From: Alphaproteobacteria bacterium UBA1185
GTDB taxonomy: Bacteria > Pseudomonadota > Alphaproteobacteria > Rs-D84
Length of the DNA: 64,000 bases
Assembly (NCBI GenBank): GCA_002310415.1
Contig: DBYN01000006.1
Location: 4,996-68,995, forward strand
Direction of reading: 5' to 3'
The stretch's first letter is position 1, and every line of letters starts with the position of its first letter. Shown in pieces: positions 4,133-34,691 of this stretch. A program made the translations under genes and the position numbers. Under the pieces are notes generated by a model. It was not told where the DNA came from, ran no database searches, and saw nothing but the letters and a program-made list of their open reading frames with translations.

Positions 4133-4167
4133 TGTACACCTTTGATTTATAAAATTTATAGCACAAT

Positions 4168-5499: not shown

Positions 5500-6689
5500 T
5501 TTGCCGACGTTATGTTTTTAAATTCTTGTACATCTGGGACAGAAGGCACAGATGCGCGTGTTAATATCAATTTTGAAAACGATGGCGGTGTATTTGTTGG
5601 AAATACCCAAGAACCTATTTGTAATGGTCCCGCCCCAGATAACAATAATTCACCCGACACTGTTACCCCAAATCCATCACCAAAAACCATTTCTGTTGCA
5701 GATATGTACGGTGTCAAAAGTTTACTGGTTGAAATACCAGTAAATCCAGTTATTGACCGTGCACTGTCAGATTTTAAAATCAAATTATTTGCAACATTAA
5801 CTGAATCTGCTATGCTTGCACTGTCTACAATCAAACGCCCATTTGTAACATATTTGTCACCATTTAATCTGTCTGCAAAAATTTTACTGAATCCATTTGT
5901 ATCACCTGTTACACGCATAGAACCAATTTTAATATCTGTCGAATCTAAATTTGCGCCAGAAGAAAAATATAACACGTCCGCATCAACAACATCTGAAGTT
6001 AAAAACACACCGTCCACATCCGTTATTTTTGCAGACAAAGATAAAATATTACCAACATCAAATAAATTAAAATTATTCATGTTTAAATCGCGTTGCATTT
6101 GATTTAATCCATCTTCACCCATTGTACCACGATGTAAAAATCTAGATGTGTCTTCACCTTGAAAATCACGAGATATTCTGAATACTAAGTCACCAGGATT
6201 AAATACTTCTGGCGCAGACACAGCCCAAGTTTGCCCATACGCAACATCGTCATCACTAACAATTGCAGCATCTATACCTATGTGTTTTGCTACGTTCACA
6301 GAATGATATAAATTATTATTCATATCAAATGCCAAATATACGTCTGTGATTGATGCACCATTAACTTTATATTTGTCTATGAAACCAGCATATGCTAATG
6401 GCGCAATTTTATTTATTTCATCATCTGTTAACTGAATTTCAACTGTATCTGGCCATTGTGTTTGATTGATACGTAAAAAATTAATTACCGAATCTTTTGA
6501 TTTAACAATTTTATTTGCCGTTGCTATATCACGCACATCACCAGAAATATCCATTATTTGATTATACATAAAAGGCGATATCGCAATAACTACGGTAATT
6601 GCCAATAAAACCTCTAATACAGAAGCACCACGTTCTGCACAAGACAACATATTGTAAAAATGTTTTTTACATACACTCATTTCCGCCAT
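5484..6689 (-). CDS. Large (about 390-401 aa) protein with type IV prepilin-like N-terminus (paralog 2 of 3)
   Basis: N-terminus ...MLSCAERG|ASVLEVLLAITVVIAISPF, with Glu at +5. The start is uncertain. ATG at 6650 would give a typical 8-aa leader and remove the overlap with the upstream stop at 6667. Confidence 0.6.
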   Translation of the reverse strand: MAEMSVCKKHFYNMLSCAERGASVLEVLLAITVVIAISPFMYNQIMDISGDVRDIATANKIVKSKDSVINFLRINQTQWPDTVEIQLTDDEINKIAPLAYAGFIDKYKVNGASITDVYLAFDMNNNLYHSVNVAKHIGIDAAIVSDDDVAYGQTWAVSAPEVFNPGDLVFRISRDFQGEDTSRFLHRGTMGEDGLNQMQRDLNMNNFNLFDVGNILSLSAKITDVDGVFLTSDVVDADVLYFSSGANLDSTDIKIGSMRVTGDTNGFSKIFADRLNGDKYVTNGRLIVDSASIADSVNVANNLILKSDSARSITGFTGISTSKLLTPYISATEMVFGDGFGVTVSGELLLSGAGPLQIGSWVFPTNTPPSFSKLILTRASVPSVPDVQEFKNITSANWHIK

Positions 6690-8548: not shown

Positions 8549-10084
8549 ATGGAAAATAATTATACTGTTCTGGCACGTAAATATCGCAGTCAAGATTTTG
8601 AATCTTTGATTGGTCAAGATGTGTTGGTTAAAACTTTGACAACCGCTATTAATACGGGACGTATTGCACATGCATATATATTTACTGGTATTCGTGGAAC
8701 CGGAAAAACCAGTACTGCGCGTATATTGGCCAAGGCGTTAAATTGTTTATCTTCTGAAACAGCAACATCAAAACCATGTGGAAAATGTGAAAACTGTCGC
8801 GCCATAGCCGCAGGACAACATATTGATGTTATGGAAATTGATGCTGCATCACATACTGGGGTTGATAATATGCGCGATATTTTGGATGCCGCTCAATATC
8901 GTCCTACAAATGCCAGATACAAAGTGTATATTATTGACGAAGTTCATATGTTATCAACCAGCGCATTTAATGCATTATTAAAAACATTAGAAGAACCACC
9001 TGCACATGTTATATTTATATTGGCAACAACCGAAATTAGAAAAGTTCCTGTAACAATTCTGTCGCGCTGTCAAAGATTTGATTTGGCTCGTGTTCCTGTT
9101 GAAACATTGAAAAAACATTTCGCTTATATTGCTGGTCAAGAAAACATCGAATTATCTGATGGTGCAAACGAATTGTTGGCACGTGCCGCTGATGGTTCTG
9201 TGCGCGATGGGTTATCTTTGTTGGATCAAGCAATTGCACAAACTGGTGGTCATGTTGATGAAACCGCTGTTTTAGACATGTTAAAAAGAACAGATCGTGG
9301 TACTGTTGTTGGGTTTATGAAAACCATTTTATCTGGCGATGTTAGTGTCGCATTGAATAAACTGGACGAAATATATAACAACGGCGCAGATTTAACTATG
9401 TTATTAAACGATATGATGGAATGGACGCATTGGGCAACACGCATGTATCCATCATTACGCTTGCAAGATTCAACTTCGTCCCCATATACCGCCGACCAAC
9501 GCGAAACAATAAAAAATATCAATGAAAATATATCTTTGAACACTTTGTCCAGAATATGGCAAGTTATGGTTGCGGCTGTTCCAGAATTACAGGCATCAAA
9601 CAATCAAAAACAATGTTTTGATATGTTGGTTGTACGATTAATGCATATCGCAGATATGCCATCAATTCCAGAATTATTAAAACAGCAAGACAACAATACA
9701 ACACCTCAAAAACAACCAGAGATTAAAGTTGCCGAACAAACCAAGCATATTGATATAAAAACGTCTGATGAATTGGCATCTGCTTTACAACATGCACGTG
9801 AATTATTATTGTATTCTTACTATGCTAATAATCTTGAAATTATCAATTTTGATATTGGAAAAATAAAATATTTTGACCGCAAAGGCGATAAAGATTTTTC
9901 ACAAAAATTGGCTATTTGGTTAAAAGATAATACGGGCCAAACGTGGGAATTAGAAACTGTATCAGAATCGCCTCATCAACAAACCGTCGTAGAACATACT
10001 AAATCTGAAATAGAATCTGACCCTATGGTCGCCAACGCGATGGGATTATTTGAAGATGCAGAGATTGTAAGTATATCTAAATAA
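8549..10084 (+). CDS. dnaX: DNA polymerase III subunit gamma/tau
   Basis: Walker A GIRGTGKTS, zinc module CGKCENC, IIDEVHMLS, SRCQRF. The ORF-track start 8531 is TTG. ATG at 8549 follows AAGGAAG, so I prefer it. Confidence 0.9.
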   Translation: MENNYTVLARKYRSQDFESLIGQDVLVKTLTTAINTGRIAHAYIFTGIRGTGKTSTARILAKALNCLSSETATSKPCGKCENCRAIAAGQHIDVMEIDAASHTGVDNMRDILDAAQYRPTNARYKVYIIDEVHMLSTSAFNALLKTLEEPPAHVIFILATTEIRKVPVTILSRCQRFDLARVPVETLKKHFAYIAGQENIELSDGANELLARAADGSVRDGLSLLDQAIAQTGGHVDETAVLDMLKRTDRGTVVGFMKTILSGDVSVALNKLDEIYNNGADLTMLLNDMMEWTHWATRMYPSLRLQDSTSSPYTADQRETIKNINENISLNTLSRIWQVMVAAVPELQASNNQKQCFDMLVVRLMHIADMPSIPELLKQQDNNTTPQKQPEIKVAEQTKHIDIKTSDELASALQHARELLLYSYYANNLEIINFDIGKIKYFDRKGDKDFSQKLAIWLKDNTGQTWELETVSESPHQQTVVEHTKSEIESDPMVANAMGLFEDAEIVSISK

Positions 10085-10103
10085 ACAAACCAGGGGTAAA
10101 AAT

Positions 10104-10559
10104 ATGAGAGAGCAATCAGGACGTTCATTAATAGAAATTATTGGTGTATTGGCATTGGGTGCAATTATGGTATCTGCTGCATTCAGCATGTATCATACTT
10201 CAAATCAAAGACAAAAAAGATTAATCGCCACAGAAAATTTACGCGATATTGCAACCAAGACAAAAACTTTGTTGGAATATTCTGGATATCAACCTGTATC
10301 TGTTGATTTTCTAATTGAATCTGGCGCACTGGTAAATGATAAACAACCGATGGGTGGACAAGATTGGTCTGTTACATCTTCCATAGATGGTACAGAATTT
10401 TCGATTAATTTGGTTGATGTACCTTTTGAAGATTGTGCGTATTTTTCAACGAAAAAATTTAGTTGGGCGTTACGCATAGAAATAAACGGATACGATTCAA
10501 ACACTGGTTCTTTTTGTTTAAAAACGGGTGATAACAGAATATCTTTTGTTGTAAAATAA
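10104..10559 (+). CDS. Type IV pilin-like protein (151 aa, major-pilin size)
   Basis: MREQSG|RSLIEIIGVLALGAIMVSAAF: 6-aa leader, Glu at +5, hydrophobic helix. C-terminal Cys pair (FEDC...SFC) resembles the pilin D-region disulfide. Confidence 0.65.
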   Translation: MREQSGRSLIEIIGVLALGAIMVSAAFSMYHTSNQRQKRLIATENLRDIATKTKTLLEYSGYQPVSVDFLIESGALVNDKQPMGGQDWSVTSSIDGTEFSINLVDVPFEDCAYFSTKKFSWALRIEINGYDSNTGSFCLKTGDNRISFVVK

Positions 10560-10564
10560 AAAAA

Positions 10565-11245
10565 ATGAAATTAAAAACAATTATTTTATCTTTGATATGC
10601 TTTGTTTTGATGGGATGTCAACAATATCACAGCCCAAGTCGTAATACATGGCAAAAATATTTATCTGGTGCCAGTTTTATGGATATGACAGAAACAGCAA
10701 AAACCGCTAAATTGCCTGTATACATGGGACATGGTGGAAAAATTGTAACCGCAACAGGGGAATTATCACCCAATATGCAATATGGTGATAAAAACAATAT
10801 AGATAATGTAACATTATTAAATTATATGTCAGGATTAGAATATGAATTATATGACAGTTTACGTAAACCTGGAATATCTGTTCAGCGCGCTGGAACTGAC
10901 GTTGTTGTAATTTTGGTTCGTGATGCAATTATGGAAATGAATATTGCAGATATTTCGGCAGATGGTGCAGATACATTGAATACTATTACCAAGATATTAA
11001 AAAAATACGGTGCTACGTTTATAGAGATTGCAGGATATACAGATTCTATGAAAGATAAAAATGCTGCATACGCATTTTCGTTGGATATGGCGGAACGTGT
11101 TGGGGTTTATTTGGCGCAACATAATATATCTACATCGCGTATGTTTATTGTTGGACGTGGTTCTGCGCGCCCAATTGCTGGTCAAAACGATACTGGTCGT
11201 TTAACAAACCGTCGTGTTGAAATTAAAATTAATCCAGCCAGATAA
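10565..11245 (+). CDS. OmpA-family lipoprotein (OmpA/MotB C-terminal peptidoglycan-binding domain)
   Basis: Lipobox FVLMGC. C-terminus IEIAGYTDS...AYAFSLDMAERVGVYL...GRGSARPIA...NRRVEI. Starts 5 nt after the pilin-like gene. Confidence 0.8.
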   Translation: MKLKTIILSLICFVLMGCQQYHSPSRNTWQKYLSGASFMDMTETAKTAKLPVYMGHGGKIVTATGELSPNMQYGDKNNIDNVTLLNYMSGLEYELYDSLRKPGISVQRAGTDVVVILVRDAIMEMNIADISADGADTLNTITKILKKYGATFIEIAGYTDSMKDKNAAYAFSLDMAERVGVYLAQHNISTSRMFIVGRGSARPIAGQNDTGRLTNRRVEIKINPAR

Positions 11246-11361
11246 AAATTTTTTCATATTTTGAAAGACTTGCGTTTTTCTGGAAATGTTGCTATATTCA
11301 CTATGATTAATCAATTCCACTTTGCAAAATAAGCAGTGGAACAAACAAAGGAAGGTTCAAA

Positions 11362-12009
11362 ATGAAAACAAATACAATAATTCAAAAATATAAAAAAACT
11401 GGTTTAATCGCAGGTATTGCTGTTCTTGTTGCGGCATTGTGCATTTGGGGATTTTCACGTTCTGATAATGGTGCATCGTTGAATGATTCTTTGTCCGAAG
11501 TATCAGAAAAAGCGCCAACATTATCTGATTTACGCGTTGCTGTTGTAAGTATGGATAAAATTCAAATGGATTCCGCGGTATTAAAAGATTTACATAAACA
11601 ACGCGAATCTTTTGAAAAGAAATTAAAAGCAAAATTGGAAAAAGAACAAAAAGCAATAGAAAAAGAAAAAACTGATATTGAAAAATCACAAGATGTTTTG
11701 TCCCAAGAAGCATTACAACGTCGTGTTGTTGAATATCAACGTCGTATAAATAATTTCCAACGTGATTTGGCAGAAAAAGCGCAATCTGTTGAAGCATCAT
11801 ACCAAGATGCATTGACCACAATTCAAAAGAAACATTTAGACCCTGTTATAGAAGGTATTATTGCAAAGAAAAAATTATCTTTGGTAATTGATGGCCGTAT
11901 GGCGCGTGTTGGCAAAGATGTAGAAGGTTTGGATATTACAGATGAAGTTATTAAATCTTTGAACAAAAAAGTGTCATCTGTAAAAATGGCAACACCAAAA
12001 GGTTTTTAA
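11362..12009 (+). CDS. OmpH/Skp-like periplasmic chaperone
   Basis: 215 aa. N-terminal hydrophobic segment, then a long Lys/Glu coiled-coil region flanked by VAVVSMDKI... and LSLVIDG blocks typical of OmpH. Confidence 0.6.
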   Translation: MKTNTIIQKYKKTGLIAGIAVLVAALCIWGFSRSDNGASLNDSLSEVSEKAPTLSDLRVAVVSMDKIQMDSAVLKDLHKQRESFEKKLKAKLEKEQKAIEKEKTDIEKSQDVLSQEALQRRVVEYQRRINNFQRDLAEKAQSVEASYQDALTTIQKKHLDPVIEGIIAKKKLSLVIDGRMARVGKDVEGLDITDEVIKSLNKKVSSVKMATPKGF

Positions 12010-20845: not shown

Positions 20846-21936
20846 AAAAAGTTCTTTTTAATTTGACAGACGGCGAATTAAATCAATTTGTAATTGATAT
20901 GGGTTTGCCACGTTTTCGTGCAAAACAAATACGTGAATGGTTGAATCGTGGTGCGCCTGATTTTTCTGTGATGAAGAATTTGCCAATTGATTTACGTGAA
21001 AAATTAAATCAGGTTGCCGAAACTTTGCCGGTTAAAATTGTACAAAAATTGGAAAGTAAAGATAACCAGACAACCAAATTTTTATTGGAATTGAATGATT
21101 GTGAACAAATAGAATGTGTTTTGATGCGCACAACATACGGTAACAGTGTTTGCGTCAGTTCCCAGGCTGGTTGTGCCATGGGATGTAAATTTTGTGCCAG
21201 CACATTATTAGGTTTAAAGCGTAATTTAACAATAAATGAAATGTTTGCCCAGGTTTTGGTTGCACAGTGGGAATTACGGGGCGATAAATTAAACGACACA
21301 CGTCCGAACGGTGATGCAAATAATAACGATGTTTCGCATATTGTCGTTATGGGAACGGGCGAACCATTACAAAACACTGAAAATGTAATTGGATTTTTAG
21401 AACGTGCAAACAATGAATTAAATATTTCTTGGCGTCGAATCACAGTATCAACCTGTGGCATAGTTTCGGGCATAGACGCGTTAAACACATGGGGACGACC
21501 AATCAACCTGGCAATATCATTACACGCGCCAGACGACGATTTACGCACGCAAATAATGCCCATAAATAATCGATACAAGATAGCCGAAGTTTTAGATGCT
21601 GCATTTCGGTTTTCGGACACCCATAATCGTCAGTTAATGATTGAATATATATTATTAGGTAAAAAGAATGCAGACGGTGAAATAGAATTGTTTAATTCAT
21701 CGCCAGAACATGCTGAAAAGTTATCGAATTTAATGCGTGGACACAATGTAATGGTGAATTTGATTCCTTGGAACGCAGTTGATGAACGTGATTTTGCATC
21801 TATTTCCGGCAACGCAGTTCACAGATTTCAAGATATTTTAATAAAAAACGGTGTACACACACGAATAAGACGTGAACGTGGTGCAGACATTGGTTCTGCA
21901 TGTGGTCAGTTAAGATTAAAAAACGCAAAGAGATAA
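20842..21936 (+). CDS. rlmN: 23S rRNA/tRNA (adenine-C2)-methyltransferase RlmN (radical SAM)
   Basis: Radical SAM cluster motif CAMGCKFCAS, FRAKQIREW N-terminus, C-terminal GSACGQL. Confidence 0.9.
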   Translation: MKKVLFNLTDGELNQFVIDMGLPRFRAKQIREWLNRGAPDFSVMKNLPIDLREKLNQVAETLPVKIVQKLESKDNQTTKFLLELNDCEQIECVLMRTTYGNSVCVSSQAGCAMGCKFCASTLLGLKRNLTINEMFAQVLVAQWELRGDKLNDTRPNGDANNNDVSHIVVMGTGEPLQNTENVIGFLERANNELNISWRRITVSTCGIVSGIDALNTWGRPINLAISLHAPDDDLRTQIMPINNRYKIAEVLDAAFRFSDTHNRQLMIEYILLGKKNADGEIELFNSSPEHAEKLSNLMRGHNVMVNLIPWNAVDERDFASISGNAVHRFQDILIKNGVHTRIRRERGADIGSACGQLRLKNAKR

Positions 21937-21976
21937 AAAATCACCCCGAAGATTTAAATCTTTGGGGTGATTTTTT
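21937..21976. terminator. Bidirectional intrinsic terminator
   Basis: AAAAA-TCACCCCGAAGATTT/AAATCTTTGGGGTGA-TTTTTT between convergent rlmN and the 21996-23783 gene. Confidence 0.7.
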
Positions 21977-21995
21977 ATACTTTTTAACATTGCGA

Positions 21996-23783
21996 TTAAT
22001 AATTCACATCAATGATACAATCGCCATTAAACCATTTCACTTTATATGATTTATTATTAAAATCGTCCTTAATTTTTTTCATAAAATCATTTATGGTGTT
22101 ACATTGTTTTTCAGTAATACCACCGCAAGAGGAAAATGTATAACTATAATCACCATTTACAACATTTTCACACGCATATCTCAACACACCTGTTCTTCTT
22201 TCGGTGTCAACCACTTCATCCAAATCGTCAAATTTGAATATATATTTTAGTTCTTGACCTATATCATTTCTGTATTTACATGTTAACCAATCATCGTTGT
22301 CTCTTGTTTCGTATTTGGAATCACAATTAACTGTTGCTCTCCCTATCTCTTCACTACGATACCTTTGTAACCAATCTTTGGCCATTTGTATCCCCATAAG
22401 AGGTTTAACCTGAATTTTACCGAGTTCGGTTATTGTTTCTATCGGATTGAAACAAGCGCCACGTGTTGGGTTGTATAACCATCCATCTGAACAAGTAATA
22501 TCAGAGAAATTAATATGATACGTACCATCTGTACACTCAATTTCATAAGTATATTTTGTACCAGATTTATAATATTTTCTGGGATTTTCCCCGTTATGAA
22601 GGTAACACTCTTTGTCCTGTACAGGCTCAAATATAGCATTATCTAAACTAAAATCCGATTTTACAACGCCTTTGTTAAAGGTAAATATGCTATTTTGGGG
22701 CTCTGTGTTTTTACCTGGTTCTTCATTTGGTTGTTGAGGCTTTTCCTGAACTGGTACATTTTTATCTTCTGGGTTTGTTGGATTATTATCACCATCCCCT
22801 TTCTTAACATCACCATCATCTATGTCGTCAAATTTTACATACAGACGATTTGGTTTTGTGCCAGTTTTGCAATTAAACACTTTGGTTTTATCATCATGTT
22901 TTTTGACAGTATTATCCGGACAAACATCATCGCCTAATTTTTTACTTACTGCAACACTGTCCATATCTTCGGTTTTTGTTTTATCGGCAACATGAATCGT
23001 ACAAGAATTTTCTGCATCACCCTTGGTTGGTTTACCAGTGCATGCCGCCAAGAATGCAGCATCAATTTTTGCTTTTTCGTCTTCACCAGTCGGTGCAGGT
23101 TTTGTTGGCTCTGTTTTTTCTGGTTGTACTTCTGGTTTTGTTTCTGCTTTGGGTTGTTCCACTGGCGCATCTGGTTGTGGCTTGGATTCTTCTTTTTTAG
23201 TTTCCGCCGGAACTTCCGCCTTTACTTTACCAGTTGCCTTGTAATCGTCTTTGGTACATTCAAAACTATCGTCACCACCCGAACATGTCATATTCAACAA
23301 TTCAGAAAACATTTTGTGTGCTTTGTCTAATTGATTTTTATCAACATCATTAACAGCACAAGTTTTATCGTTCGGTGTTCCTTGGGCATCTTTACATATT
23401 TGTGCAAACTCTTGTGCAAACTGTTCCGCTGCTTTTTGTGCTGCTTCTTCCTTGCGTTTTTCTTCAACTCTTTTGTCCTGTTCCGCTTGCAGTTTTTCTT
23501 GTCTGTCTTCCTCTGTCTTTAATGCTTTTTTCGCCTTATTAACATCTTCCTTGGCGTTATTTAAAACCACAGCCTCTGCAATATTACCCGCAACACCAAC
23601 CGCAGTTAATCCCAACGTGGATATACCAGCAATTTTCAAAGCCTTGGTGGTGCCCTTGCAATCTTCCAGTTTTTTCATCTTTTGTTGCTTTTCAGCAATC
23701 AACTGGGCAACACGCGGATGTTCCGCAAAACATGCGCCAGAAACCAAACTTAATATCAATCCAAATGTTAAATATTTTTTCAT
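21996..23783 (-). CDS. Secreted glycine-zipper/coiled-coil protein with Pro/Lys/Glu linker and Cys-containing C-terminal modules (family member A)
   Basis: 595 aa. Signal peptide MKKYLTFGLILSLVSGACFA|EHP. 54 residues (EHPRVAQL...NIAEAVVL) identical to the neighbour at 23878-26202. Repeated C...C...YVKFDDI / YIFKFDDL type modules. Confidence 0.6.
   Translation of the reverse strand: MKKYLTFGLILSLVSGACFAEHPRVAQLIAEKQQKMKKLEDCKGTTKALKIAGISTLGLTAVGVAGNIAEAVVLNNAKEDVNKAKKALKTEEDRQEKLQAEQDKRVEEKRKEEAAQKAAEQFAQEFAQICKDAQGTPNDKTCAVNDVDKNQLDKAHKMFSELLNMTCSGGDDSFECTKDDYKATGKVKAEVPAETKKEESKPQPDAPVEQPKAETKPEVQPEKTEPTKPAPTGEDEKAKIDAAFLAACTGKPTKGDAENSCTIHVADKTKTEDMDSVAVSKKLGDDVCPDNTVKKHDDKTKVFNCKTGTKPNRLYVKFDDIDDGDVKKGDGDNNPTNPEDKNVPVQEKPQQPNEEPGKNTEPQNSIFTFNKGVVKSDFSLDNAIFEPVQDKECYLHNGENPRKYYKSGTKYTYEIECTDGTYHINFSDITCSDGWLYNPTRGACFNPIETITELGKIQVKPLMGIQMAKDWLQRYRSEEIGRATVNCDSKYETRDNDDWLTCKYRNDIGQELKYIFKFDDLDEVVDTERRTGVLRYACENVVNGDYSYTFSSCGGITEKQCNTINDFMKKIKDDFNNKSYKVKWFNGDCIIDVNY
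23578..23723 (-). repeat. 146-nt near-identical segment shared with 25997-26142 (copy 1)
   Basis: I aligned the two by eye and found 2 mismatches in 146 nt. Flanking coding sequence is clearly more diverged. Confidence 0.85.
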
Positions 23784-23877
23784 ACTGGTATACCTTTTTG
23801 TTATACTTAATTGTATTAATTGATGGTCGTGGATTTAATTTTACCTTCTGAACCTTAAAAACCTCTTGATCTACAGG

Positions 23878-26202
23878 TTATTCTTTTTGAATATTGGTAA
23901 ACTTGAACTTATACTCGTTTCCATAGTCATCTGTACACGTTCTATCAGGACCCGACGATGGCCTGCAACCGCTCAAAAATATATATTTTGCGGTTTCTTC
24001 AGGGATACCCTTTCCTTTTATAAATTCCACTATTTTGTCTCCAACAGTAAGCCTATTACCTTTCTTTGTTTCATATACTGCATCATCAAAAGTTTTCGAA
24101 AACCGTTGATTATATACGCCTTTGGGTTCAGACTTTGCAGAAGTGATTTTTTCAAAAAACAAAATATGTTTATCATTATTAATATCTGTACAAGTCACTT
24201 CCTCTTTCTCTTTAATATTTGATGGACATTTGTACTGCTTATCACTAAATCCTTTACCTTTAAAATACTCTTTTATCTTGGATTTAACACCGTTGATATC
24301 ACCTGTTTCATAAGTTTCACCATCAAAAACCTTTTTTTCGTATGTTTTTGGCAAAGAACGTCCAGGTATACCCGCCGCTTTTGTTTCTGTCCCTTTTTTC
24401 ACGTAGAAACTCAACCTGCCATCTTGAGCAGATGTGTGTTTACTATTGCAACTAACACTCCATTCGGAATCTGTATCTAATCCATCACACTCACAATCAG
24501 TTAAACCCAATTCTGGAGCTTTTTTGTTCGCTTGTTTTACAAAATTTACGGCATCATCACAAGTTTTAGCGGTTTGTTTTGATAACCATTCTGTAGAATC
24601 TGTGACAAGATCATTGCCACCTTTGATATTTTGTAGTTTTTCCTCTTTTGTTACTATTTTTTTCTCTTCTGCATCTTGTACTATTTTTGCCTCTTCTGCA
24701 CCTTGTACACCAGATCCAGATGCATTCAAAGTATCCTTGTTATTCCAATTAACAATTATGGTTGCAACTTCATCATAATCATCATCATACACGGTGCACT
24801 TCAATTTTCCCTTCCCTGCACTTTCACACTCAACATCCTTATATTTATATTTTAAAAGCTCTACTACCACTCGCGCTTGTGCCGCCTCTATTGCCTGACC
24901 TTCAGAATCATACACGCCACTCATATCCCAAGTTTTGGGTATTACATTACCATTGCCTTGTTCGCTGTTTTGGTTTGCTTTTGGTAATTCATTATTTTTG
25001 TTCCCTGTTGTTTTTATACATTCACCTTTTTTTGAATCCCATTTTCTTTCATCGCCCTGGCATTCTACACCACGAAATGTAACATACATAACATTCTTTT
25101 TGGCTTGTTCACCACAACCAATCGTAAATCTTGTCTTTTCAGATGTTGTTAAATCTTGAACAAAATGTCCAGAATAACAATTTATTCTGTCAAAATCTGT
25201 TTCGTCTGTTATACGCTCTTCAACTCTTCTAACAACAGCAGTCAAAGCCTTTTGACCTTCGGCGACGGACAACGCCTCATCAAACTCCATTTGACAAGCT
25301 TGACCATCTGGCTGTGTTCCCCCCAATGATTCACAATATTTTCTATTTGGTGTTTGAATTTCTTCAAATACAACACGAACATGCATACCACTGCATTCTG
25401 TGTCGTATGTGGTATTTGAATAAGAAGTCGACCTTTTGCACGATGCGTTGTTAACATATCCCTGAACTTCGTTGTAAATTTCATTGATAGCAACAGTTAT
25501 ATTAGTTTTGTCAATAATACAAACATCTTCGGCTTCGTTATAGTTACCAGACCAATCGCTATTACACACTTTAATCAATTTTTTCTTGGCATCAAGTTTA
25601 TTTTTTTCAGATTGTGTTATAGATGTACCACCAAACTGAACACGTACAGACATACCATCACATTTTGCATCAAATGTATTGCTGGTGCTGGTTTCACGAA
25701 CATTTTCACAAACACCACCCACAATTTTGCTTATTTCACTTTGCGCATTTTCTTTTATTTTTAATTCAGTAGAAGATGTTATACGACAAACACTGTCTAC
25801 AAAACTTGCAGTTTGACCGTCTTTTGTTAAATTAATACATTTAGAACCATATTTTGCTTTTGCTTCTGCCTCGGCGGCTTTGGCTTCTTGTTCTTCTTTT
25901 TGGGACTGCAATTCTTCTTGTCTTTCTTCCTGTTTCTTTAATTCAGATTTAGCCTTTTTAACATCGTCTTTGGCATTGCTTAACACCACCGCTTCGGCAA
26001 TATTACCCGCAACACCAACCGCAGTTAAACCCAACGTGGATATACCAGCAATTTTCAAAGCCTTGGTGGTACCCTTGCAATCTTCCAGTTTTTTCATCTT
26101 TTGTTGCTTTTCAGCAATCAACTGGGCAACACGCGGATGTTCAGCCGCACAAAGCCCCGGTATTAACGATATTATCAAACTGGATATAATTGCTTTTTTC
26201 AT
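23878..26202 (-). CDS. Secreted glycine-zipper/coiled-coil protein with multiple Cys modules (family member B)
   Basis: 774 aa. Signal peptide MKKAIISSLIISLIPGLCAA|EHP, the same 54-aa core, a coiled coil, then three 4-Cys modules ending SVRVQFGG / HVRVVFEE / MYVTFRGV, plus 2-Cys modules ending KFKFTNI. Confidence 0.6.
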   Translation of the reverse strand: MKKAIISSLIISLIPGLCAAEHPRVAQLIAEKQQKMKKLEDCKGTTKALKIAGISTLGLTAVGVAGNIAEAVVLSNAKDDVKKAKSELKKQEERQEELQSQKEEQEAKAAEAEAKAKYGSKCINLTKDGQTASFVDSVCRITSSTELKIKENAQSEISKIVGGVCENVRETSTSNTFDAKCDGMSVRVQFGGTSITQSEKNKLDAKKKLIKVCNSDWSGNYNEAEDVCIIDKTNITVAINEIYNEVQGYVNNASCKRSTSYSNTTYDTECSGMHVRVVFEEIQTPNRKYCESLGGTQPDGQACQMEFDEALSVAEGQKALTAVVRRVEERITDETDFDRINCYSGHFVQDLTTSEKTRFTIGCGEQAKKNVMYVTFRGVECQGDERKWDSKKGECIKTTGNKNNELPKANQNSEQGNGNVIPKTWDMSGVYDSEGQAIEAAQARVVVELLKYKYKDVECESAGKGKLKCTVYDDDYDEVATIIVNWNNKDTLNASGSGVQGAEEAKIVQDAEEKKIVTKEEKLQNIKGGNDLVTDSTEWLSKQTAKTCDDAVNFVKQANKKAPELGLTDCECDGLDTDSEWSVSCNSKHTSAQDGRLSFYVKKGTETKAAGIPGRSLPKTYEKKVFDGETYETGDINGVKSKIKEYFKGKGFSDKQYKCPSNIKEKEEVTCTDINNDKHILFFEKITSAKSEPKGVYNQRFSKTFDDAVYETKKGNRLTVGDKIVEFIKGKGIPEETAKYIFLSGCRPSSGPDRTCTDDYGNEYKFKFTNIQKE
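25997..26142 (-). repeat. 146-nt near-identical segment shared with 23578-23723 (copy 2)
   Basis: See copy 1. Confidence 0.85.
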
Positions 26203-26216
26203 GGTCGCAGTCCTTT

Positions 26217-26244
26217 TAAAATAATCTGGTTAAAATAATCTGGT
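26217..26244. repeat. Perfect tandem duplication of a 14-mer (TAAAATAATCTGGT x2) in a 43-nt intergenic spacer
   Basis: Read directly at 26217-26230 and 26231-26244, between the stop of family member C and the RBS/start of member B. Confidence 0.9.
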
Positions 26245-26245
26245 A

Positions 26246-26644
26246 TTATTCATTTCCTTTTAATTCTTTTGCTGTACTTTCATTTTTTTCTTTCAAATCT
26301 TTAGTTTTGGCTTTGACGTCCTTTAACTCACTTTTCTTATTGCTTATCTGAACCCCTTGTGCAATAGCGGCGATACCAGTTGCCAACACACCAGCACCAC
26401 CAATCACAGTACCAGCAATCCAACCTTTCTTGCTTTTTTCGCACTTTTTAATTTCAGAATCCAATATACGAATGTCGTTTTCCAAAATCTGAATGTTGCG
26501 CGCATCTTCCATTGTCAATTCTGGATATGCAGGTCCATAAGAACCATACGGATCAGCATTAGAATTATTCACAACCAATGCAGCATTCGCAGTACAACAA
26601 ACACCGGCAAACATGCCAGAAACCAACAAAATTTTAGTTTTCAT
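26246..26644 (-). CDS. Small secreted glycine-zipper/coiled-coil protein (family member C)
   Basis: Preferred start MKTKILLVSGMFAGVCCTANA (ATG at 26644; the ORF-track start 26707 is an extension). KKCEKSKKGWIAGTVIGGAGVLATGIAAIAQGV then a Lys/Glu coiled coil. Same layout as the N-termini of A and B. Confidence 0.55.
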   Translation of the reverse strand: MKTKILLVSGMFAGVCCTANAALVVNNSNADPYGSYGPAYPELTMEDARNIQILENDIRILDSEIKKCEKSKKGWIAGTVIGGAGVLATGIAAIAQGVQISNKKSELKDVKAKTKDLKEKNESTAKELKGNE

Positions 26645-26780
26645 AGTAAATCTCCTACTTTGATACTTATGGGTATTATACCATAAAAGCACCCCGATAA
26701 AAAGCAAAAATTAATATCTTTTTAAAATTAATTTTGATGTGGGTAAAACAAAATCACATTCGCTCCGCTCGATTATACTA

Positions 26781-26809
26781 ATCGCGACGGAGCGAAGCGA
26801 AGACGGATG
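26781..26809. repeat. GC-rich 29-nt dispersed repeat, copy 1 (abuts the tRNA-Val 3' end)
   Basis: ATCGCGACGGAGCGAAGCGAAGACGGATG matches 45783-45811 (ATCGCGACGTAGCAAAGCGAAGACGGATG) at 27 of 29 positions. Confidence 0.8.
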
Positions 26810-26884
26810 GTGGATGTTAAGGGACTCGAACCCCTGACCCTCTGCGTGTAAAGCAGATGCTCTAGCCAACTGAGCTAAACATCC
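26808..26884 (-). tRNA. tRNA-Val (anticodon TAC), CCA encoded
   Basis: Manual cloverleaf: acceptor GGATGTT/AACATCC, D arm GCTC-AGTTGGCTA-GAGC, anticodon arm TCTGC-TTTACAC-GCAGA, T arm AGGGG-TTCGAGT-CCCTT, then ACCA. Confidence 0.9.
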
Positions 26885-26899
26885 AAGCAAAGCAGGCTT

Positions 26900-26928
26900 A
26901 TAATAATCTGTTTTTTTTGTATTGTCCA
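26900..26928 (-). promoter_or_regulatory. Candidate promoter for tRNA-Val(TAC)
   Basis: On the minus strand: TGGACA, 17 nt, TATTAT. The -10 element ends 15 nt upstream of the mature tRNA 5' end. Confidence 0.35.
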
Positions 26929-29697: not shown

Positions 29698-31281
29698 ATG
29701 TCAGATAAATTAACAAAACTTAAAGAAGCAGCAAAAAAAGCAATCCTTGTTGCTACTGGCGTTGCCACATTATCGTTTGGGGCACAAGGTAAAACCAAAG
29801 AAGACGATAAAAACAAAAATAACCAAGGGAAAAAAGTATCCATCGCACAAATTGATGGTACAAGTAATAATCAAGGAATCCCAAAATTTTTAACAGACCC
29901 CGCCAAAAACAAACCAAAGGACAAAAAATACATAAAGAATCTTGACCCAAGAAATGAAAGACTTATAAACGACACTTGGCCAGAATATTCTGGCATGATT
30001 CCGGGCTTTGAATCATTTTTTGGGTTAACTGACAGCGGAAGACTTAAATACAGTTCCGGAGAAAGCCGTTGCACCATTGGTTATGGAAATACGTATACTT
30101 TTTTACCGGCTGGCAACAATGTGTTTTATCAATATGAATGTCAAGACCACAGTTCCAAAGGACGCCCAGACAGCCCAATGGCACCCGAAATAAAAGCACA
30201 CTATAAAAATAACGATAAAAATTGGTTTATGTATCAAGCAAAATTACACTTGATGCTGGAAACTTTACCAATATTAAGAAATAAACTGGCCAGATATGGA
30301 TTACCTGCGCCTGAAAAACTACCAAAAAATGTGTTGTGGGCATTATTAATCGCGGGATATCAAAGGGATGATTATGATGCTATTTTGCCAAAATTCAAAA
30401 CGGCACAGACAATCCAAGACAAAGCCAATGCTTTTTCATATTTTGGTTCACAAAGAAGACTTTTAAGGGGTTCATGGGACCGTCGTTATTGGTTAGGGCT
30501 TTTGGCTGCTGGCAAAGTAACGATAAAACAATTAAACAGTTTTCCAATTGATGGATTTTCGGAACTTGGTATACAACACTATGTCGTAAACAAATCTGAA
30601 ACGTGGTATAATGGCACTATGGGATGTAAATTCAAAGTTGATGATGAAACAATCAAAAAAAATATCCAAATAGTTAAAAAAGTTAAGGCAGAAACAATCA
30701 CTAACCATATGAAAAACTTTGACCAAAGTCAAAAAACAAAAGTTACAAAGGGCGTAGATAAGACTGCTAAATCAGTGGATATAAGGGCAGGTCAAGTAAA
30801 AGCGATGATGGCGGATGCTCATAAATCTTTGAAAGATAAAAAATATAAAGAAGCAACTAGTAAATACGAAGCGATTATTGCAAAAGATAAAAATAATTCC
30901 GAAGCATATAGCGATTTAACTTTGGCATATATAAAATTGGCAGAAAACAGCAAAACATCCGCAGAAAAAACTAAATATTACGAAGCATCTTGTAAAAATG
31001 CTAGATTGGGTCTTAGATCAAATCCAGATATTAATACAAGCGCATATTTATCTTTTAACGCAGGATTGGCACGCGAAGGTTTGGCAAAACATTATGCTAC
31101 TAATAAAAATTTCAGCAAAGCCGAAGAGCAGTATCACAAAGCCAAAATTAATTACGATAATGCTTTTAAGACTATTCCAAATAAAGTTTATTCAAATGCA
31201 CGCGATAATGCTGAAAGCGAGGCTTACCGTATAAGAAACATGATAAGGCAAATGAACAAGTCGAATCAACGTCGTCGGTAA
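29698..31281 (+). CDS. Hypothetical exported protein with a GH24 lysozyme-like motif and C-terminal TPR-like repeats
   Basis: 527 aa with an N-terminal hydrophobic segment AILVATGVATLSFGAQG. GRLKYSSGESRCTIGYGNT resembles the phage-lysozyme LRLKxYxDxxGxxTIGxGH block. The C-terminus has KYKEATSKYEAIIAKDKNNSEAYSDLTLAYIKL type helical repeats. Confidence 0.45.
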   Translation: MSDKLTKLKEAAKKAILVATGVATLSFGAQGKTKEDDKNKNNQGKKVSIAQIDGTSNNQGIPKFLTDPAKNKPKDKKYIKNLDPRNERLINDTWPEYSGMIPGFESFFGLTDSGRLKYSSGESRCTIGYGNTYTFLPAGNNVFYQYECQDHSSKGRPDSPMAPEIKAHYKNNDKNWFMYQAKLHLMLETLPILRNKLARYGLPAPEKLPKNVLWALLIAGYQRDDYDAILPKFKTAQTIQDKANAFSYFGSQRRLLRGSWDRRYWLGLLAAGKVTIKQLNSFPIDGFSELGIQHYVVNKSETWYNGTMGCKFKVDDETIKKNIQIVKKVKAETITNHMKNFDQSQKTKVTKGVDKTAKSVDIRAGQVKAMMADAHKSLKDKKYKEATSKYEAIIAKDKNNSEAYSDLTLAYIKLAENSKTSAEKTKYYEASCKNARLGLRSNPDINTSAYLSFNAGLAREGLAKHYATNKNFSKAEEQYHKAKINYDNAFKTIPNKVYSNARDNAESEAYRIRNMIRQMNKSNQRRR

Positions 31282-31289
31282 AATACACT

Positions 31290-34200
31290 TTATTTTACCG
31301 ATTCATCGTGAGCGTACCAAGTGCCACCTGAATCAATAATCACCAACTGGTTTGGCGAAATTGACGTTATTGTATGCGCGGTTTGCGATAGCAACATGTG
31401 ATATGTCTGACCGTCCTTGCGTGCAATCAAAGCCTTGGTATTGACACCCGGTAAACCATCAATCAAACACATCGTCGCGCCCATAACCGTCATTTCTGTA
31501 CACTCTGATTGATTCACAGGATAGACTACACATCCATCAGTATTCAAATCATATTCACACCATGTTGAATCATTTGTTTCAAACATCCATAGTGTTGATT
31601 GATTTGGACAATGTGGTTCACCAGAACAGGAAACACATTGAAATGCACCTTCTGCCTTTTGTCCAGTACCACATATTATAAAGTTGTCACCAGGAATACA
31701 TGAAACCTTGCCAGACCAATCGGATTCAAAACCGGTTGTGTATTGAATCAACGGCGCAGTACACGATGTATCAAGATTGGTTCCTTCAAATATATATTCC
31801 ATTGGGTCGTCGCCTGTATCAGGATATGGATTCGGTGCCGTTAAATTTGCAAACAATGTTGGTGGCACATATCCGGACAAATCGGTGTCACCATAAAACA
31901 TACCGTAAAAAATATATTCCCCCAGTGTACCCGTAATATTTGGGAATAAACTGTTTGGTAAATGCGTCAACGACGTACATCCATAAAAAGTAGTCAAAAA
32001 CATATCATTAACCCCTGTTACATCACCCACCCCTGAAAACAAGTTTTCTGGAATCGATTGCAACGATGTACAATTTAAAAATGTATACGAATACATATAA
32101 TCCGCCGCACCGGTTACGTGTTCAAACAAAGTTGCAGGAATTGGGTTAGTTATTTTCGGATCTGCACCCAATTCCGTACATTCCGCAAATGTCCCAGAAA
32201 ACATACCTTCTGCCGCACCGGTTACACCATTGAACAAACCAGCGGGGATAAATGTTATTTGGGTCTCTGCAAAAGTTCCAGCAAACATTTCTGTTGCTGC
32301 GCCAGTTATGCCACTGAACAAAGTTGCAGGAATAGATGTTATTGATGTACCTGCAAAAGTTCCAGCAAACATTTCTGCTGCTGCGCCAGTTATACCACTG
32401 AACAAAGTGGAGTGAATAGATGCTATCGGTGTATAAGCAAATGTATTATAGAACATTTGCGATGTTGCACCAGTTACATCGTCAAACAAATCTGCAGAAA
32501 TTGATTCCAACGATGTACAATCGGAAAATGCATTCTTAAATTTTGGTTGTGCAATTATTTGATCATTCGAATTACGTATTGTTGGAAATACATGTCCCAA
32601 AGACCCACGCAATGCCGCAACAAACTCTCTTCCGTTGTCATAATTAATATATAATACACCATCTTCTTCGGAATAATCAGTGGCGGTTCCACCAATACTG
32701 ATAGTATATGATTTTTGGGTTTCGTACGTATGTGTTATTGGCAGAAAAGAATCCGTATCTGACTTGTTTATAACTTCTGTTGGACTGTCGTCACCCCAAT
32801 CTATGAAAAATCTTCCAGCCGCAGATATATATAAAGTAAATTCGCCAACAGTATCCTTTGTTGTATCAATAAAGAATTCGTATGAGGTTCTCCATGTGGC
32901 GTATAAATCTATGTCTGTTATTGAACCAACTGGAATTTCTGTTACAAGATCGCCAGCCGGACATTCAACATCATCACCAGATATTACCGATGAACACCAA
33001 CCCATAAACGTATATCTATCACGTGATAATCCGCTTAATTCCATTGGCAACAAAGATGCCGTATAAGATATCGGATTATTGTTTGTTGCGCCCGATAAAT
33101 TATGATAGTTAATTGAATGTGTCCATGTTGTATAACACGCATTCTCGTAATGTTCCAAATTAGACGGATTATATATATCTTGTTGATATCGTTCAAGATG
33201 TTGATAAAAATATTCATCCCAATCAATATTATTTAAATTGTTTTGATCTATATTCTTTGCCGTCAATTCAACAGGAAAAACATCTGCTGAATAAGTATTA
33301 TACTCAGCATTTATTATGGTAACCGCATCATTACCAACACAATCCCTTATTACACTGGAACAATCTGTATAGTGATGCCATTGAGTATCATGATATGTTT
33401 CCGCATTATATCTGCAAGTCATATAAGATACCCCGATTTTTGAATAATCGCATGGCGTGCCAAAATAATAATCATAATCATCACCAAACCATTCACGCAA
33501 TGTTGCTTCTGATTCATCACCATAAACTAATTGCATATAACATCGATTATATTCTTCTTCATCCTCTATATCCCAATACATACTGATACACTCGGTTATA
33601 CTTTCCTGTCCATCACCATTTAAATCAAACCATGCCGAACCAAAATGCCCCGTATTTTCCCCAGTAACCGGACAAATAGAACATTTATTTACAGATGATG
33701 CACCAGAATCACTGTACGGTCTGTTTGGATTATTTTCAGCGCAAGATACAATACCCGCAGCCATTTGTGTTTTATTATTAACTTGCTTTTCTGTTATATC
33801 ATCATAAGAATATGTTCTGGAATTTCCGTTATCACCCGGGCAATAGTAATTTTTCTCACAATATGAACAATACAACATGTTGGTTGCAGTTTCCATTCTT
33901 GCATAATAACCTGCATCACATGTTGCCGTCCATGTTGCATACAACCAGTTTTTACCGGCATCCTGACGCGATAAAGAAAAAATCGGATTGTTACATTTTG
34001 CTGCCTCTATCGGGTCCGGCTGTTCAGAATCATATGCACACCAACCCCGAAAAGTGACACCATACCCGGAAGCCTGTAGCGAATCCAACACTATACTATT
34101 TGCAGAAACAACCCTTACACTAAAATCGGCATTAACATCATCTGTCGAAAATTTGTATTTATATTTATCGTTTGTATACCAATAATATTGCGTTATATAC

Positions 34201-34691
34201 GAAGCAATAAAGCGTCCGCCATTCAAATTATAATGCAACGTGTTTATCGGAACATATTTTGCATAAACCCATTTATCGCCCGCATCAGAAACCGTCAAAT
34301 CAAAAACTGGATTTGGGCAATTGGTGTCATTAGTCGCAATGTCAACGTCAGCTTGTTCAGAATTATATACACACCAACCAACCCAACCAAAAGAATCCTT
34401 GTTGTTCGCCGTCCCCAAGCCCATGCGACACATGTACGGTTGATTAACAGTTACATAATCAGACCAAGTTAAATCATTTGTTGTATCATCATAATATTGA
34501 TATCTGTAAACATACTTGCAATAATTATCCCAATAATACTCTTGTTTTTTGTCCGCCGGGTTGGACATTTCCCCACCATTAAGATTGTAATGAATCGTAT
34601 ATGTATCAGTTGGGTACGTTATACCAAATACAGACAAAGGCAACACAACAAAAACGATAAAAAACAACATTTGTTGCATAAATTTTTTCAT
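31290..34691 (-). CDS. Giant surface protein: Listeria-Bacteroides (Flg_new) repeats, Cys-rich regions and BspA/DUF285-type leucine-rich repeats
   Basis: 1133 aa, signal peptide MKKFMQQMLFFIVFVVLPLSVFG. Three modules: YTIHYNLNGG...WVYAKY, LHYNLNGG...TFRGWCAY...WLYATW, INYHNLSG...YTFMGWCSS...LYATW. DWGDDSPTEV...THTYE block. Then eight or more ~28-aa repeats such as ITSIPATLFSGITGAATEMFAGTFAETQ. Confidence 0.7.
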   Translation of the reverse strand: MKKFMQQMLFFIVFVVLPLSVFGITYPTDTYTIHYNLNGGEMSNPADKKQEYYWDNYCKYVYRYQYYDDTTNDLTWSDYVTVNQPYMCRMGLGTANNKDSFGWVGWCVYNSEQADVDIATNDTNCPNPVFDLTVSDAGDKWVYAKYVPINTLHYNLNGGRFIASYITQYYWYTNDKYKYKFSTDDVNADFSVRVVSANSIVLDSLQASGYGVTFRGWCAYDSEQPDPIEAAKCNNPIFSLSRQDAGKNWLYATWTATCDAGYYARMETATNMLYCSYCEKNYYCPGDNGNSRTYSYDDITEKQVNNKTQMAAGIVSCAENNPNRPYSDSGASSVNKCSICPVTGENTGHFGSAWFDLNGDGQESITECISMYWDIEDEEEYNRCYMQLVYGDESEATLREWFGDDYDYYFGTPCDYSKIGVSYMTCRYNAETYHDTQWHHYTDCSSVIRDCVGNDAVTIINAEYNTYSADVFPVELTAKNIDQNNLNNIDWDEYFYQHLERYQQDIYNPSNLEHYENACYTTWTHSINYHNLSGATNNNPISYTASLLPMELSGLSRDRYTFMGWCSSVISGDDVECPAGDLVTEIPVGSITDIDLYATWRTSYEFFIDTTKDTVGEFTLYISAAGRFFIDWGDDSPTEVINKSDTDSFLPITHTYETQKSYTISIGGTATDYSEEDGVLYINYDNGREFVAALRGSLGHVFPTIRNSNDQIIAQPKFKNAFSDCTSLESISADLFDDVTGATSQMFYNTFAYTPIASIHSTLFSGITGAAAEMFAGTFAGTSITSIPATLFSGITGAATEMFAGTFAETQITFIPAGLFNGVTGAAEGMFSGTFAECTELGADPKITNPIPATLFEHVTGAADYMYSYTFLNCTSLQSIPENLFSGVGDVTGVNDMFLTTFYGCTSLTHLPNSLFPNITGTLGEYIFYGMFYGDTDLSGYVPPTLFANLTAPNPYPDTGDDPMEYIFEGTNLDTSCTAPLIQYTTGFESDWSGKVSCIPGDNFIICGTGQKAEGAFQCVSCSGEPHCPNQSTLWMFETNDSTWCEYDLNTDGCVVYPVNQSECTEMTVMGATMCLIDGLPGVNTKALIARKDGQTYHMLLSQTAHTITSISPNQLVIIDSGGTWYAHDESVK
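31845..32531 (-). repeat. In-frame 84-nt (28-aa) periodic repeats encoding the BspA-type LRR array
   Basis: Adjacent units starting at 32269 and 32353 are near-identical over about 60 nt (GCAAAAGTTCCAGCAAACATTTCTG[T/C]TGCTGCGCCAGTTAT...). Flanking units are progressively more degenerate. Confidence 0.8.

Follow-up and report, generated by a model that had tools for sequence, protein, structure and literature searches.

A lineage-specific family of small and long proteins with a shared helical module and fast-changing Cys-rich tails in Rs-D84 Alphaproteobacteria: candidate exported coiled-coil surface proteins

What kind of protein is made by three adjacent genes that share a layout and resemble no family in the databases? 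The question is raised by genes that we call A, B and C, which lie on the minus strand between positions 21996 and 26644 of a 64,000-nucleotide (nt) stretch of DNA (the window) from Alphaproteobacteria bacterium UBA1185 (Rs-D84; assembly GCA_002310415.1, contig DBYN01000006.1, positions 4,996-68,995). A preliminary description of this DNA had reported three minus-strand genes with a common layout here, and this is borne out by the features listed below. It had also taken them for a plain tandem three-copy family, which does not hold, since only A and B are paralogues of one kind; C is a conserved small partner and is not a degenerate copy or remnant of the long members. The answer that we favour, on the strength of sequence comparisons, is about an even call: the small and long proteins would be exported and disulfide-linked, forming a coiled-coil anchor and stalk that displays shuffled binding domains, in a system specific to the Rs-D84/Enterousia lineage.

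21996-23783, minus strand: gene A, long subunit, 595 amino acids (aa); N-terminal module, Pro/Lys/Glu-rich spacer and 18-Cys tail
23878-26202, minus strand: gene B, long subunit, 774 aa; signal peptide and N-terminal module (aa 21 to ~110)
Tail of gene B, minus strand: 660 aa, 24 Cys, alpha/beta modules, of which B1/B2 and B6/B7 are internal duplications
26246-26644, minus strand: gene C, small subunit, 132 aa; signal peptide, likely cleavage ANA↓A
Mature layout of C: acidic helix ILENDIRILDSEIKKC, single Cys (C68), glycine zipper GWIAGTVIGGAGVLATGIAAIAQG, short Lys-rich coiled coil
25873-26142, minus strand: N-terminal module of B (aa 21-110); basic helix, zipper IAGISTLGLTAVGVAGNIAEA, coiled coil with Ile at a
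23454-23723, minus strand: N-terminal module of A (aa 21-110); DNA almost the same as that of B
25981-26052 (B, aa 51-74), 23562-23633 (A) and 26345-26422 (C), minus strand: Gly/Thr-rich hydrophobic helix
26077-26079 (B, C42), 23658-23660 (A) and 26441-26443 (C, C68), minus strand: codon of the conserved unpaired Cys
21999-22478, minus strand: C-terminal domain of A (aa 436-595), two-lobed alpha/beta, Cys-containing

The part that A and B have in common is a short N-terminal module. The preliminary description had noted 54 identical residues followed by divergence, and the string in question, EHPRV...AVVL, occupies residues 21-74 of both proteins; by BLASTP they are 86% identical over residues 16-100, with no significant match afterwards. 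Both score 153-154 bits against a hidden Markov model (HMM) of the long family, in whose modules L28, K32, K35, L39, C42, I51, A52, G53, S55, T56, L57, T60, G63 and N67 are invariant. The resulting signature is L-x3-K-x2-K-x3-L-x2-C-x8-IAG-x-ST-x-G-x-TA-x-G-x3-N, followed by a heptad stalk with Ile at a. As had been observed at the outset, each mature N-terminal module carries one Cys (C42 in A and B, C68 in C), and this residue is kept in all 146 long members. The coiled coil that was said to follow the core is visible as a heptad pattern at residues 72-110 of 188 non-redundant members, where the best of the seven possible registers gives a mean hydropathy of +0.42 at a and d positions versus -2.16 elsewhere. 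A single register runs through the long module, from L28 (d), L39 (a) and C42 (d) ahead of the zipper, through G53 (a), T56 (d), T60 (a), G63 (d), N67 (a) and E70 (d), which are invariant or nearly so, to the stalk Ile residues at a positions 74, 81, 88, 95 and 102. A register that passes through the glycine-rich helix in this way fits the oligomeric stalk proposed earlier. The hydrophobic helix, 25 residues long, comes after an amphipathic helix and the Cys and is nearly invariant across all its faces in the long family. On the Kyte-Doolittle scale it scores 1.55 for A and B and 1.88 for C, and its position-independent Hessa sums are +3.8 (A and B) and +1.7 (C) kcal/mol; its character is ambiguous, with a hydrophobicity that is borderline for Sec stop-transfer.

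Small and long proteins alike begin with a Sec-type leader whose cleavage site is AxA-like; a Pro is conserved where the h and c regions meet, and C/V-F/L-A/G immediately precedes the cleavage point. A lipoprotein anchor was considered and rejected, as positions -3 to -1 of SGAC↓F in A and PGLC↓A in B do not suit the consensus [LVI][ASTVI][GAS]C. Moreover, the leader Cys is replaced in several relatives (VFA, VFG, AFG), so the leader is best read as a signal peptidase I site and not as a lipobox.

The likeness of A to B extends to the DNA. A 300-nt direct repeat (23488-23787 and 25907-26206) covers their 5' ends, 205 of 225 nt are identical, and the same codon is used at 57 of 66 conserved residues. 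The tandem paralogues of another locus (L012) agree at 215 of 225 nt, and between species the figure is ~150-170 of 225. Near-identical 5' DNA in tandem paralogues points to gene conversion or recent duplication of the 5' module. Lying beside unrelated tails, a module homogenised in this way would offer a recombination anchor for tail exchange.

Gene C had been described as a minimal version of the same family. The homology in this claim stands: hhalign of small against long modules gives 96% probability (E = 1.7e-9) over Cys, zipper and coiled coil, the long-family HMM matches C at 20 bits, and the reverse C-family HMM matches some long members at 33 bits. These profile comparisons indicate that the likeness of C to the long N-terminal module is true homology. 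The word minimal does not stand, for C is a separate conserved small subunit with orthologues of its own, which form 33 clusters (114-137 aa); the loci that we fetched contain 31 copies, and overall lengths are 114-146 aa. Identity between C and its counterparts in relatives is 44-69%, and these small proteins share the signature LENDIxxLDxEIxKC-x6-W. Of 64 mature small proteins, 63 have exactly one Cys, and in all 64 with the motif the conserved Cys precedes the Trp by 7 residues. In 31 of 48 related loci the gene just upstream of a long member is C-like; the spacing between the two ranges from -35 to +95 nt and is typically ~10 nt, and in several cases stop and start codons overlap by 4 nt.

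Several features of the small protein complement those of the long module. Its heptad frame runs through I51, L54, I58, L61, I65 and C68 (d) before the zipper and continues with T79 (a), G82 (d), V86 (a), T89 (d), A93 (a), Q96 (d) and I100 (a), which places the conserved Cys at d in both kinds of subunit. When the chains are aligned on this Cys without gaps, Gly lies opposite Thr in three successive core layers, and the residue at Cys+32 is Ile in both. The 20 residues before the Cys have a mean net charge of -1.7 in small and +2.1 in long proteins, and sequence identity between small proteins tracks that between long N-terminal modules more closely than species divergence accounts for (partial r = 0.45), although both signals are modest and the pairs are not independent. 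From these features we infer that C probably pairs with long members. The shared register and Cys and the opposite charges fit, without proving, a parallel, in-register, disulfide-locked hetero-oligomer.

How far does the family extend? When 5.8 billion proteins were searched with B, 45 clusters matched, all of them only within its first 12-26%. A profile of the first ~115 residues, run against 1.84 billion representatives, found at least 512 clusters at 50% identity, 412 of them at E <1e-10; among the matches listed, all lie at the protein N-terminus, in proteins of 84-877 aa. In GTDB, with one genome per species, we counted 49 loci, nearly all in uncultured gut or rumen Alphaproteobacteria including Candidatus Enterousia, with up to five family loci in single genomes, and 2.9 million viral contigs held no relative. 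Copy number and tail diversity across relatives, which the preliminary description had pointed to as informative, are large, and the tails are mosaic (see below). Orphan long members are flanked by housekeeping genes; two genomes, for instance, have one between rpsK and rpoA (L018, ~10001-11659; L045, ~9989-10750), a second recurrent insertion site that falls within the ribosomal-protein/rpoA row. At a further locus (L044, 7058-7903) a neighbouring open reading frame (ORF) encodes a secreted protein of 281 aa with a Gly/Ser-rich hydrophobic stretch, a helix and a Cys (..LGASLLPSVIGLATNVIQINKEQKELSAKCEP..), which may represent a further related family.

Beyond the shared module, the long proteins end in Cys-rich tails. 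The preliminary description had called these Cys-stabilised and diversifying, and both terms find support. The number of tail Cys is 18 in A and 24 in B and is even in 135 of 146 members (92%); Cys makes up 4.35% and His 0.92% of tail residues, the spacing between Cys is most often 11-16 residues, and CxxC is rare (28 among 2925 Cys). This pattern argues for disulfide-bonded extracytoplasmic domains and against cytoplasmic tails. Zinc-binding cytoplasmic tails were rejected because CxxC and His are scarce. Of the features of the disulfide-bonded extracytoplasmic class, the export signal, even Cys counts and non-metal-binding spacing are present; for the fourth, an oxidising folding system, the partial sequence available showed no candidate. 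As for diversification, mean identities over 55 pairs of syntenic loci are 87% for RlmN, 59% for the small protein and 55% for the long N-terminal module, and in 38 of the 55 pairs the tails yield no high-scoring segment pair. The tails turn over far faster than the flanking genes.

The tails are also mosaic. Residues 120-322 of A match part of another family member (P0013), and its last ~150 residues recur C-terminally in ~18 of 233 family members found by jackhmmer. In the 5.8 billion proteins the tail of A has one 98%-identical fragment and that of B has no match; a 98% copy in another sample is evidence against hypermutation. No reverse transcriptase, long homopolymer or long repeat tract was found in the region. 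The only repeats there are a 14-nt tandem in the C-B spacer and a 27-nt in-frame tandem duplication in B (24652-24705, encoding ..QGAEEAKIV / QDAEEKKIV..), and we saw no diversity-generating or phase-variation element. The tails had been described as built from small modules, and repetition among these is only partly supported: B1/B2 (z = 8.3) and B6/B7 (z = 6.8) are statistically supported internal repeats, and the remaining modules of B and A share only a pattern, an alpha/beta unit ending in a strand and often followed by a C-x(10-13)-C hairpin. The xFxF motifs noted earlier all occur in the translations, and KYIFKF of A falls in a predicted beta-strand of a confident model. That model, made with AlphaFold2 for residues 436-595 of A, has two alpha/beta lobes (predicted local distance difference test score, pLDDT, 84.7; predicted template-modelling score, pTM, 0.81). 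Foldseek found no neighbour for it in PDB or BFVD (best E ~0.01, TM <0.35), and tail domains, as modelled, appear to include folds without a solved relative. A C-terminal sorting signal or beta-signal was rejected, as only 23 of 165 members (14%) end in an aromatic residue and the C-termini have no common motif.

The genes stand at a conserved chromosomal position, marked by the following features.

21933-21978: bidirectional terminator hairpin separating the converging 3' ends of A and rlmN; arms of 23 nt with 96% complementarity and T-runs on either strand
26652-26683, minus strand: candidate expression signals; extended -10 TGgTATAAT at 26675-26683, ribosome-binding site AGGAG at 26652-26656
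26808-26884, minus strand: tRNA-Val(TAC), a landmark directly upstream of the operon

The promoter-like -10 and the ribosome-binding site upstream of C are consensus matches only; AGGAG lies 8 nt ahead of the ATG of C at 26644, and the starts of relatives are at the same site. The hairpin is the operon end. Upstream lie the tRNA gene and then ybaB and pnp; downstream, convergent with A, are rlmN, surA, lptD and a gene for an lptF/G-type permease. The GC content of the region (0.36-0.37) equals that of the rest of the window, and the order pnp-ybaB-tRNA-Val-small-long(1-2)-rlmN-surA-lptD is syntenic in at least 11 Rs-D84/Enterousia species. A, B and C look like a single operon at a native chromosomal site. 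A genomic island at tRNA-Val was rejected because tRNA and operon are syntenic across species and the GC content is that of the window.

Some details of the locus vary among relatives. In all syntenic loci the tRNA-Val(TAC) gene separates ybaB from the small gene, and its orientation relative to the operon varies: it is on the same strand in the window and in L003, L007, L010, L015 and L022, and on the opposite strand in L011, L012, L014, L025 and L032, a small local tRNA inversion. A conserved gene of ~249 aa (MKLRYITCSDPREHNS...) intervenes between the long gene and rlmN in L011, L012, L014, L015, L021, L022, L025 and L032; it is duplicated in L011 and absent from that position in the window and in L007. 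The 14-nt unit TTAAAATAATCTGG stands in tandem in the C-B spacer (26216-26243), and a third copy (86% identical) at 26898-26911 overlaps a site ahead of tRNA-Val that resembles a promoter. The unit may be a regulatory or -10-like element common to both places.

Elsewhere in the window, the interval between pnp and gpsA (29698-34691) holds two ORFs without family assignment. The plus-strand ORF (527 aa) has weak TPR matches only; the minus-strand ORF (1133 aa) encodes a signal peptide and contains internal repeats as well as Cys-rich portions. Relatives have pnp directly before gpsA, so this interval is a second variable insertion, which probably encodes another exported protein. On the minus strand at 45831-50298 lies a tripartite export set (MacB-type permease, ABC-ATPase-sized ORF, HlyD/MacA-type adaptor and TolC-like outer-membrane factor), a possible export route for envelope proteins. 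Five consecutive minus-strand ORFs at 3162-8019 have no Pfam family; the last (6667-8019) has a hydrophobic, pilin-like N-terminus (..GSFLLQALLALTLVFAFIPFFAG).

Does the family belong to any known class? The earlier statement that no family could be recognised is upheld: A, B and C have no significant match in Pfam, NCBIfam, PDB, PHROGs or PADLOC, and PDB sequence searches with both profiles and both tails likewise gave nothing significant. A Pfam scan of 172 family members produced only coiled-coil and Cys-pattern noise (CPL1-like, YscO-like, Mitofilin and Fusion_gly among the scans of A, B, C and members); CPL1-like is the sole recurrent match (8 of 172 members, best E = 1e-7) and reflects similarity of Cys pattern only. 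Lipoprotein membership finds no support in the NCBIfam model Ala_zip_lipo (E = 0.76, 10 bits against a cut-off of 43). The glycine-zipper families of Pfam (Gly-zipper_Omp, Gly-zipper_YMGG, Rick_17kDa_Anti, YtxH) do not match A, B or C up to E = 1, nor any of the 172 members scanned. Several further candidates were rejected. For a trimeric autotransporter adhesin there is no Pfam match, the C-termini are unconserved, and conservation is N-terminal only. An inverse autotransporter of the intimin/invasin type would have an N-terminal beta-barrel of ~250 aa followed by Ig-like domains, whereas this N-terminal module is ~90 aa and predicted helical, again without a Pfam match. A type IV pilin or pseudopilin does not agree with the standard Sec leader, the 28-residue polar helix before the hydrophobic segment and the lack of an N_methyl match. 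Against the ClyA-family toxins, C scores 20.3 bits where the cut-off is 125 (XaxA) and 14 where it is 420 (NheC), over 75 residues only. A phage or anti-phage defence protein finds no match in PHROGs or PADLOC and no relative on viral contigs. What A, B and C do carry are the signatures of a new Rs-D84 small-plus-long family.

Variable coiled-coil surface proteins are a known kind, and by sequence comparison the family has no detectable relationship to any of them. Like A and B in the favoured reading, the streptococcal M proteins and YadA/BadA have an exported anchor, a coiled-coil stalk with spacers and a variable distal domain, and M proteins and trimeric autotransporter adhesins likewise form multigene families with mosaic, recombining variable parts. 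A and B have an Asn in the coiled-coil core (N67 at a), a feature also known from autotransporter stalks, which contain Asn layers. M proteins, YadA and BadA are related to A, B and C neither in sequence nor in domains, and the architecture differs: the proposed anchor of A and B is N-terminal and helical whereas M proteins and autotransporters have a C-terminal LPXTG or beta-barrel, the variable part is C-terminal and disulfide-rich, and a separate small homologous subunit stands alongside. Among host-associated microbes, variable Cys-rich surface proteins such as the Giardia variant-specific surface proteins (VSPs) also form large, fast-evolving families of secreted modular proteins; the CPL1-like domain mentioned above is fungal. 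Compared with the VSPs, our family is bacterial, lacks CXXC repeats and has its anchor at the opposite end.

The module itself recalls other systems. Glycine-zipper helices (the N-terminus of VacA, the lipoproteins SlyB/Pcp and Rickettsia 17-kDa antigen, YtxH, ATP synthase subunit c) are likewise short and hydrophobic, with many Gly, Ala, Ser and Thr residues, and pack against one another in a membrane; the GxxxGxxxG of C (G74, G78, G82) is a classic example of their motif, and ATP synthase subunit c is among the faint PDB matches of the family profiles. They differ from A, B and C, which match no Pfam model of that kind and have no lipobox, and whereas classical zippers space small residues at i, i+4, those of A and B (G53, T56, T60, G63, N67) follow the 3-4 heptad spacing into the coiled coil. 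The ClyA-family proteins (XaxAB/YaxAB, Nhe, Hbl, MakA) also have adjoining genes for related subunits and a hydrophobic segment between long amphipathic helices, and the faint matches of C and of the long-module profile fall on that hydrophobic insertion region. Our proteins lack the ~350-aa bundle and have cleaved Sec signals and unpaired Cys, and the long ones bear huge variable Cys-rich tails. Lpp/OprI resemble the small subunit in being small, abundant-looking envelope proteins that form parallel coiled coils with small core residues and a Lys-rich C-terminus, and by this analogy the small subunit is possibly a counterpart of Braun lipoprotein; it differs in having a hydrophobic helix in place of a lipobox and lipid anchor, and in having long homologues with tails. 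New, then, are the N-terminal helical module with its proposed anchor role, a small homologue as its dedicated partner, and tail folds for which no solved relative was found.

How might such a system work? In the favoured reading, small and long chains would join after export, parallel and in register, into one continuous coiled coil. The acidic helix before the Cys of the small chain and the basic one of the long chain would attract each other, and an inter-chain disulfide at d would lock them. In the hydrophobic stretch, Gly would stack on Thr in the core layers and Ile, Leu and Val would face outward to lipid; an arrangement of this kind suggests a membrane-embedded anchor, for which the outer membrane seems most plausible. 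The Ile-zipper stalk and low-complexity spacers would extend the disulfide-stabilised tail modules from the cell. The tails may be exchangeable domains, antigenic or made for binding, by which the cell attaches to a partner cell, a host surface or a substrate, and they would be renewed by recombination beside the homogenised 5' module. The invariant small subunit would be the common anchor partner of several long variants, here and at other loci. A bolder version, which we regard as doubtful, makes the module an envelope anchor of a new kind: the Sec-exported, hetero-oligomeric, disulfide-locked coiled coil would cross the outer membrane as alpha-helices with its Gly/Thr zipper, and this gut symbiont of reduced genome would use it to dock on partner cells for metabolites, possibly inserting into their membrane, with one small subunit serving many long ones.

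Several points weigh against an outer-membrane stalk. To our knowledge there is no general route by which an alpha-helical anchor is inserted into the bacterial outer membrane. The borderline hydropathy of the zipper makes an inner-membrane stop-transfer possible, in which case the tails would be cytoplasmic, and only the Cys statistics oppose that topology. A motif search of ~840 kb sampled from partial genomes found no DsbA-like protein, the partial genome sequence available holds no candidate for DsbA, DsbB or VKOR, and the organism is an anaerobe without a respiratory chain. The AlphaFold2 monomer of the N-terminal module is poor (pLDDT 66), with helices at 23-42 and 58-114 and a break at 43-57. 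Finally, 17 of the 48 loci have a long gene without an adjacent small gene, and the modest co-evolution and charge signals belong on this side too.

Three other functional readings share some of this evidence. A fibre or pilus-like polymer, which we think unlikely, would follow the logic of type IV, conjugative or chaperone-usher pili, the small protein being the major subunit that polymerises through its hydrophobic helix and coiled coil and the long proteins being minor or tip adhesins. It would explain why an assembly-like module is common to the small first gene of the operon and the larger variable genes, and the near-invariance of the hydrophobic helix on every face is what tight core packing predicts. 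Conjugative pilins also have signal peptidase I-type leaders. The proteins lack a prepilin G↓FxxxE motif and a Pfam pilin match, and continuous heptads suit a bundle better than a helical polymer; nor do the genes adjoining ~48 loci include an assembly ATPase, usher or secretin, the flanks being housekeeping genes. In the published genome survey, type IV pilus genes are reported for a different lineage only (PMC12306168). The zipper could instead be a stop-transfer anchor in the inner membrane (N-out, with a cytoplasmic tail), or the proteins could stay periplasmic as a TolA/TonB/Lpp-like tether spanning the envelope, a reading that we place next in order and hold to be rather improbable. Conservation is the rule for structural periplasmic tethers, whereas few sequences in the genome change as fast as these tails; the Hessa sum of A and B disfavours membrane integration, and tails so rich in evenly counted Cys at hairpin-type spacing, with scarce CxxC and His, are ill-suited to the cytoplasm. 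In its favour, the Kyte-Doolittle hydropathy of the zipper is close to the transmembrane threshold, the Lpp/OprI alanine zipper gives a weak match (E = 0.76), and no outer-membrane targeting signal is visible, C-terminal aromatic residues being as infrequent as stated above. The Pro/Lys/Glu-rich spacer of A resembles the linkers of TonB and TolA.

A secreted binary agent that inserts into or forms pores in the membrane of a partner or host is, we judge, improbable as well, ranking third of these. Here the zipper would insert and the variable tails would bind a receptor, on the model of the ClyA-family alpha pore-forming toxins (XaxAB, Nhe, MakA) or the VacA N-terminus. Sub-threshold matches of C to alpha-xenorhabdolysin A (E = 2.9e-4) and NheC (E = 0.023) in the hydrophobic head region, of C to the fusion-peptide/heptad region of a paramyxovirus fusion protein (E = 0.009) and of the long-module profile to MakA and NheA (E ~2, PDB) point this way, as do two adjoining genes like those of binary toxins in an organism thought to take metabolites from other cells. 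The scores lie far under the family cut-offs, and composition (a hydrophobic Gly-rich stretch, then a K/E-rich helix) can account for the matches. The mature small protein has ~110 aa and a ClyA-fold subunit ~350 aa, so the defining helical tail bundle is missing. Moreover, a lineage-wide syntenic chromosomal locus with several variable paralogues is more like that of a surface protein than of a toxin. There is finally the very improbable case of a decaying, non-functional repeat family or annotation noise, suggested by the lack of a known domain and by several short database members (84-250 aa). The short entries often come from contigs of 1-3 kb and are probably truncated. The preliminary description had raised pseudogenisation in relatives; what stands at this locus in many species are intact ORFs of 250-774 aa, invariant residues are kept over the whole set of clusters, ribosome-binding sites and a terminator are present, and one tail domain has a confident fold prediction. 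These genomes are 81%-94% coding, with no build-up of pseudogenes (PMC12306168). The non-functional reading is largely refuted.

What would the family mean for the bacteria that carry it? Enterousia belongs to the order Rs-D84, whose genomes of 0.75-1.0 Mb encode a fermentative, non-flagellated life without respiration or standard transporters, and these bacteria have been proposed to be obligate symbionts or parasites that depend on other cells (PMC12306168). Rs-D84/Enterousia are widespread in the guts of ruminants, horses, birds and humans, and none has been cultured. With genomes below 1 Mb and neither respiration nor ordinary transporters, cell-cell interaction becomes the central question (PMC12306168). 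The operon of ~4.6 kb takes up ~0.5% of such a 0.75-1.0 Mb genome, and the family occurs in several copies per genome; it is the most obvious candidate for the interface of this lineage with other cells. If its zippers do anchor in the outer membrane, a rare alpha-helical mode of anchoring would be added to the biology of the Gram-negative envelope, and a helical outer-membrane anchor, or insertion into the membrane of a partner, would be categorically new.

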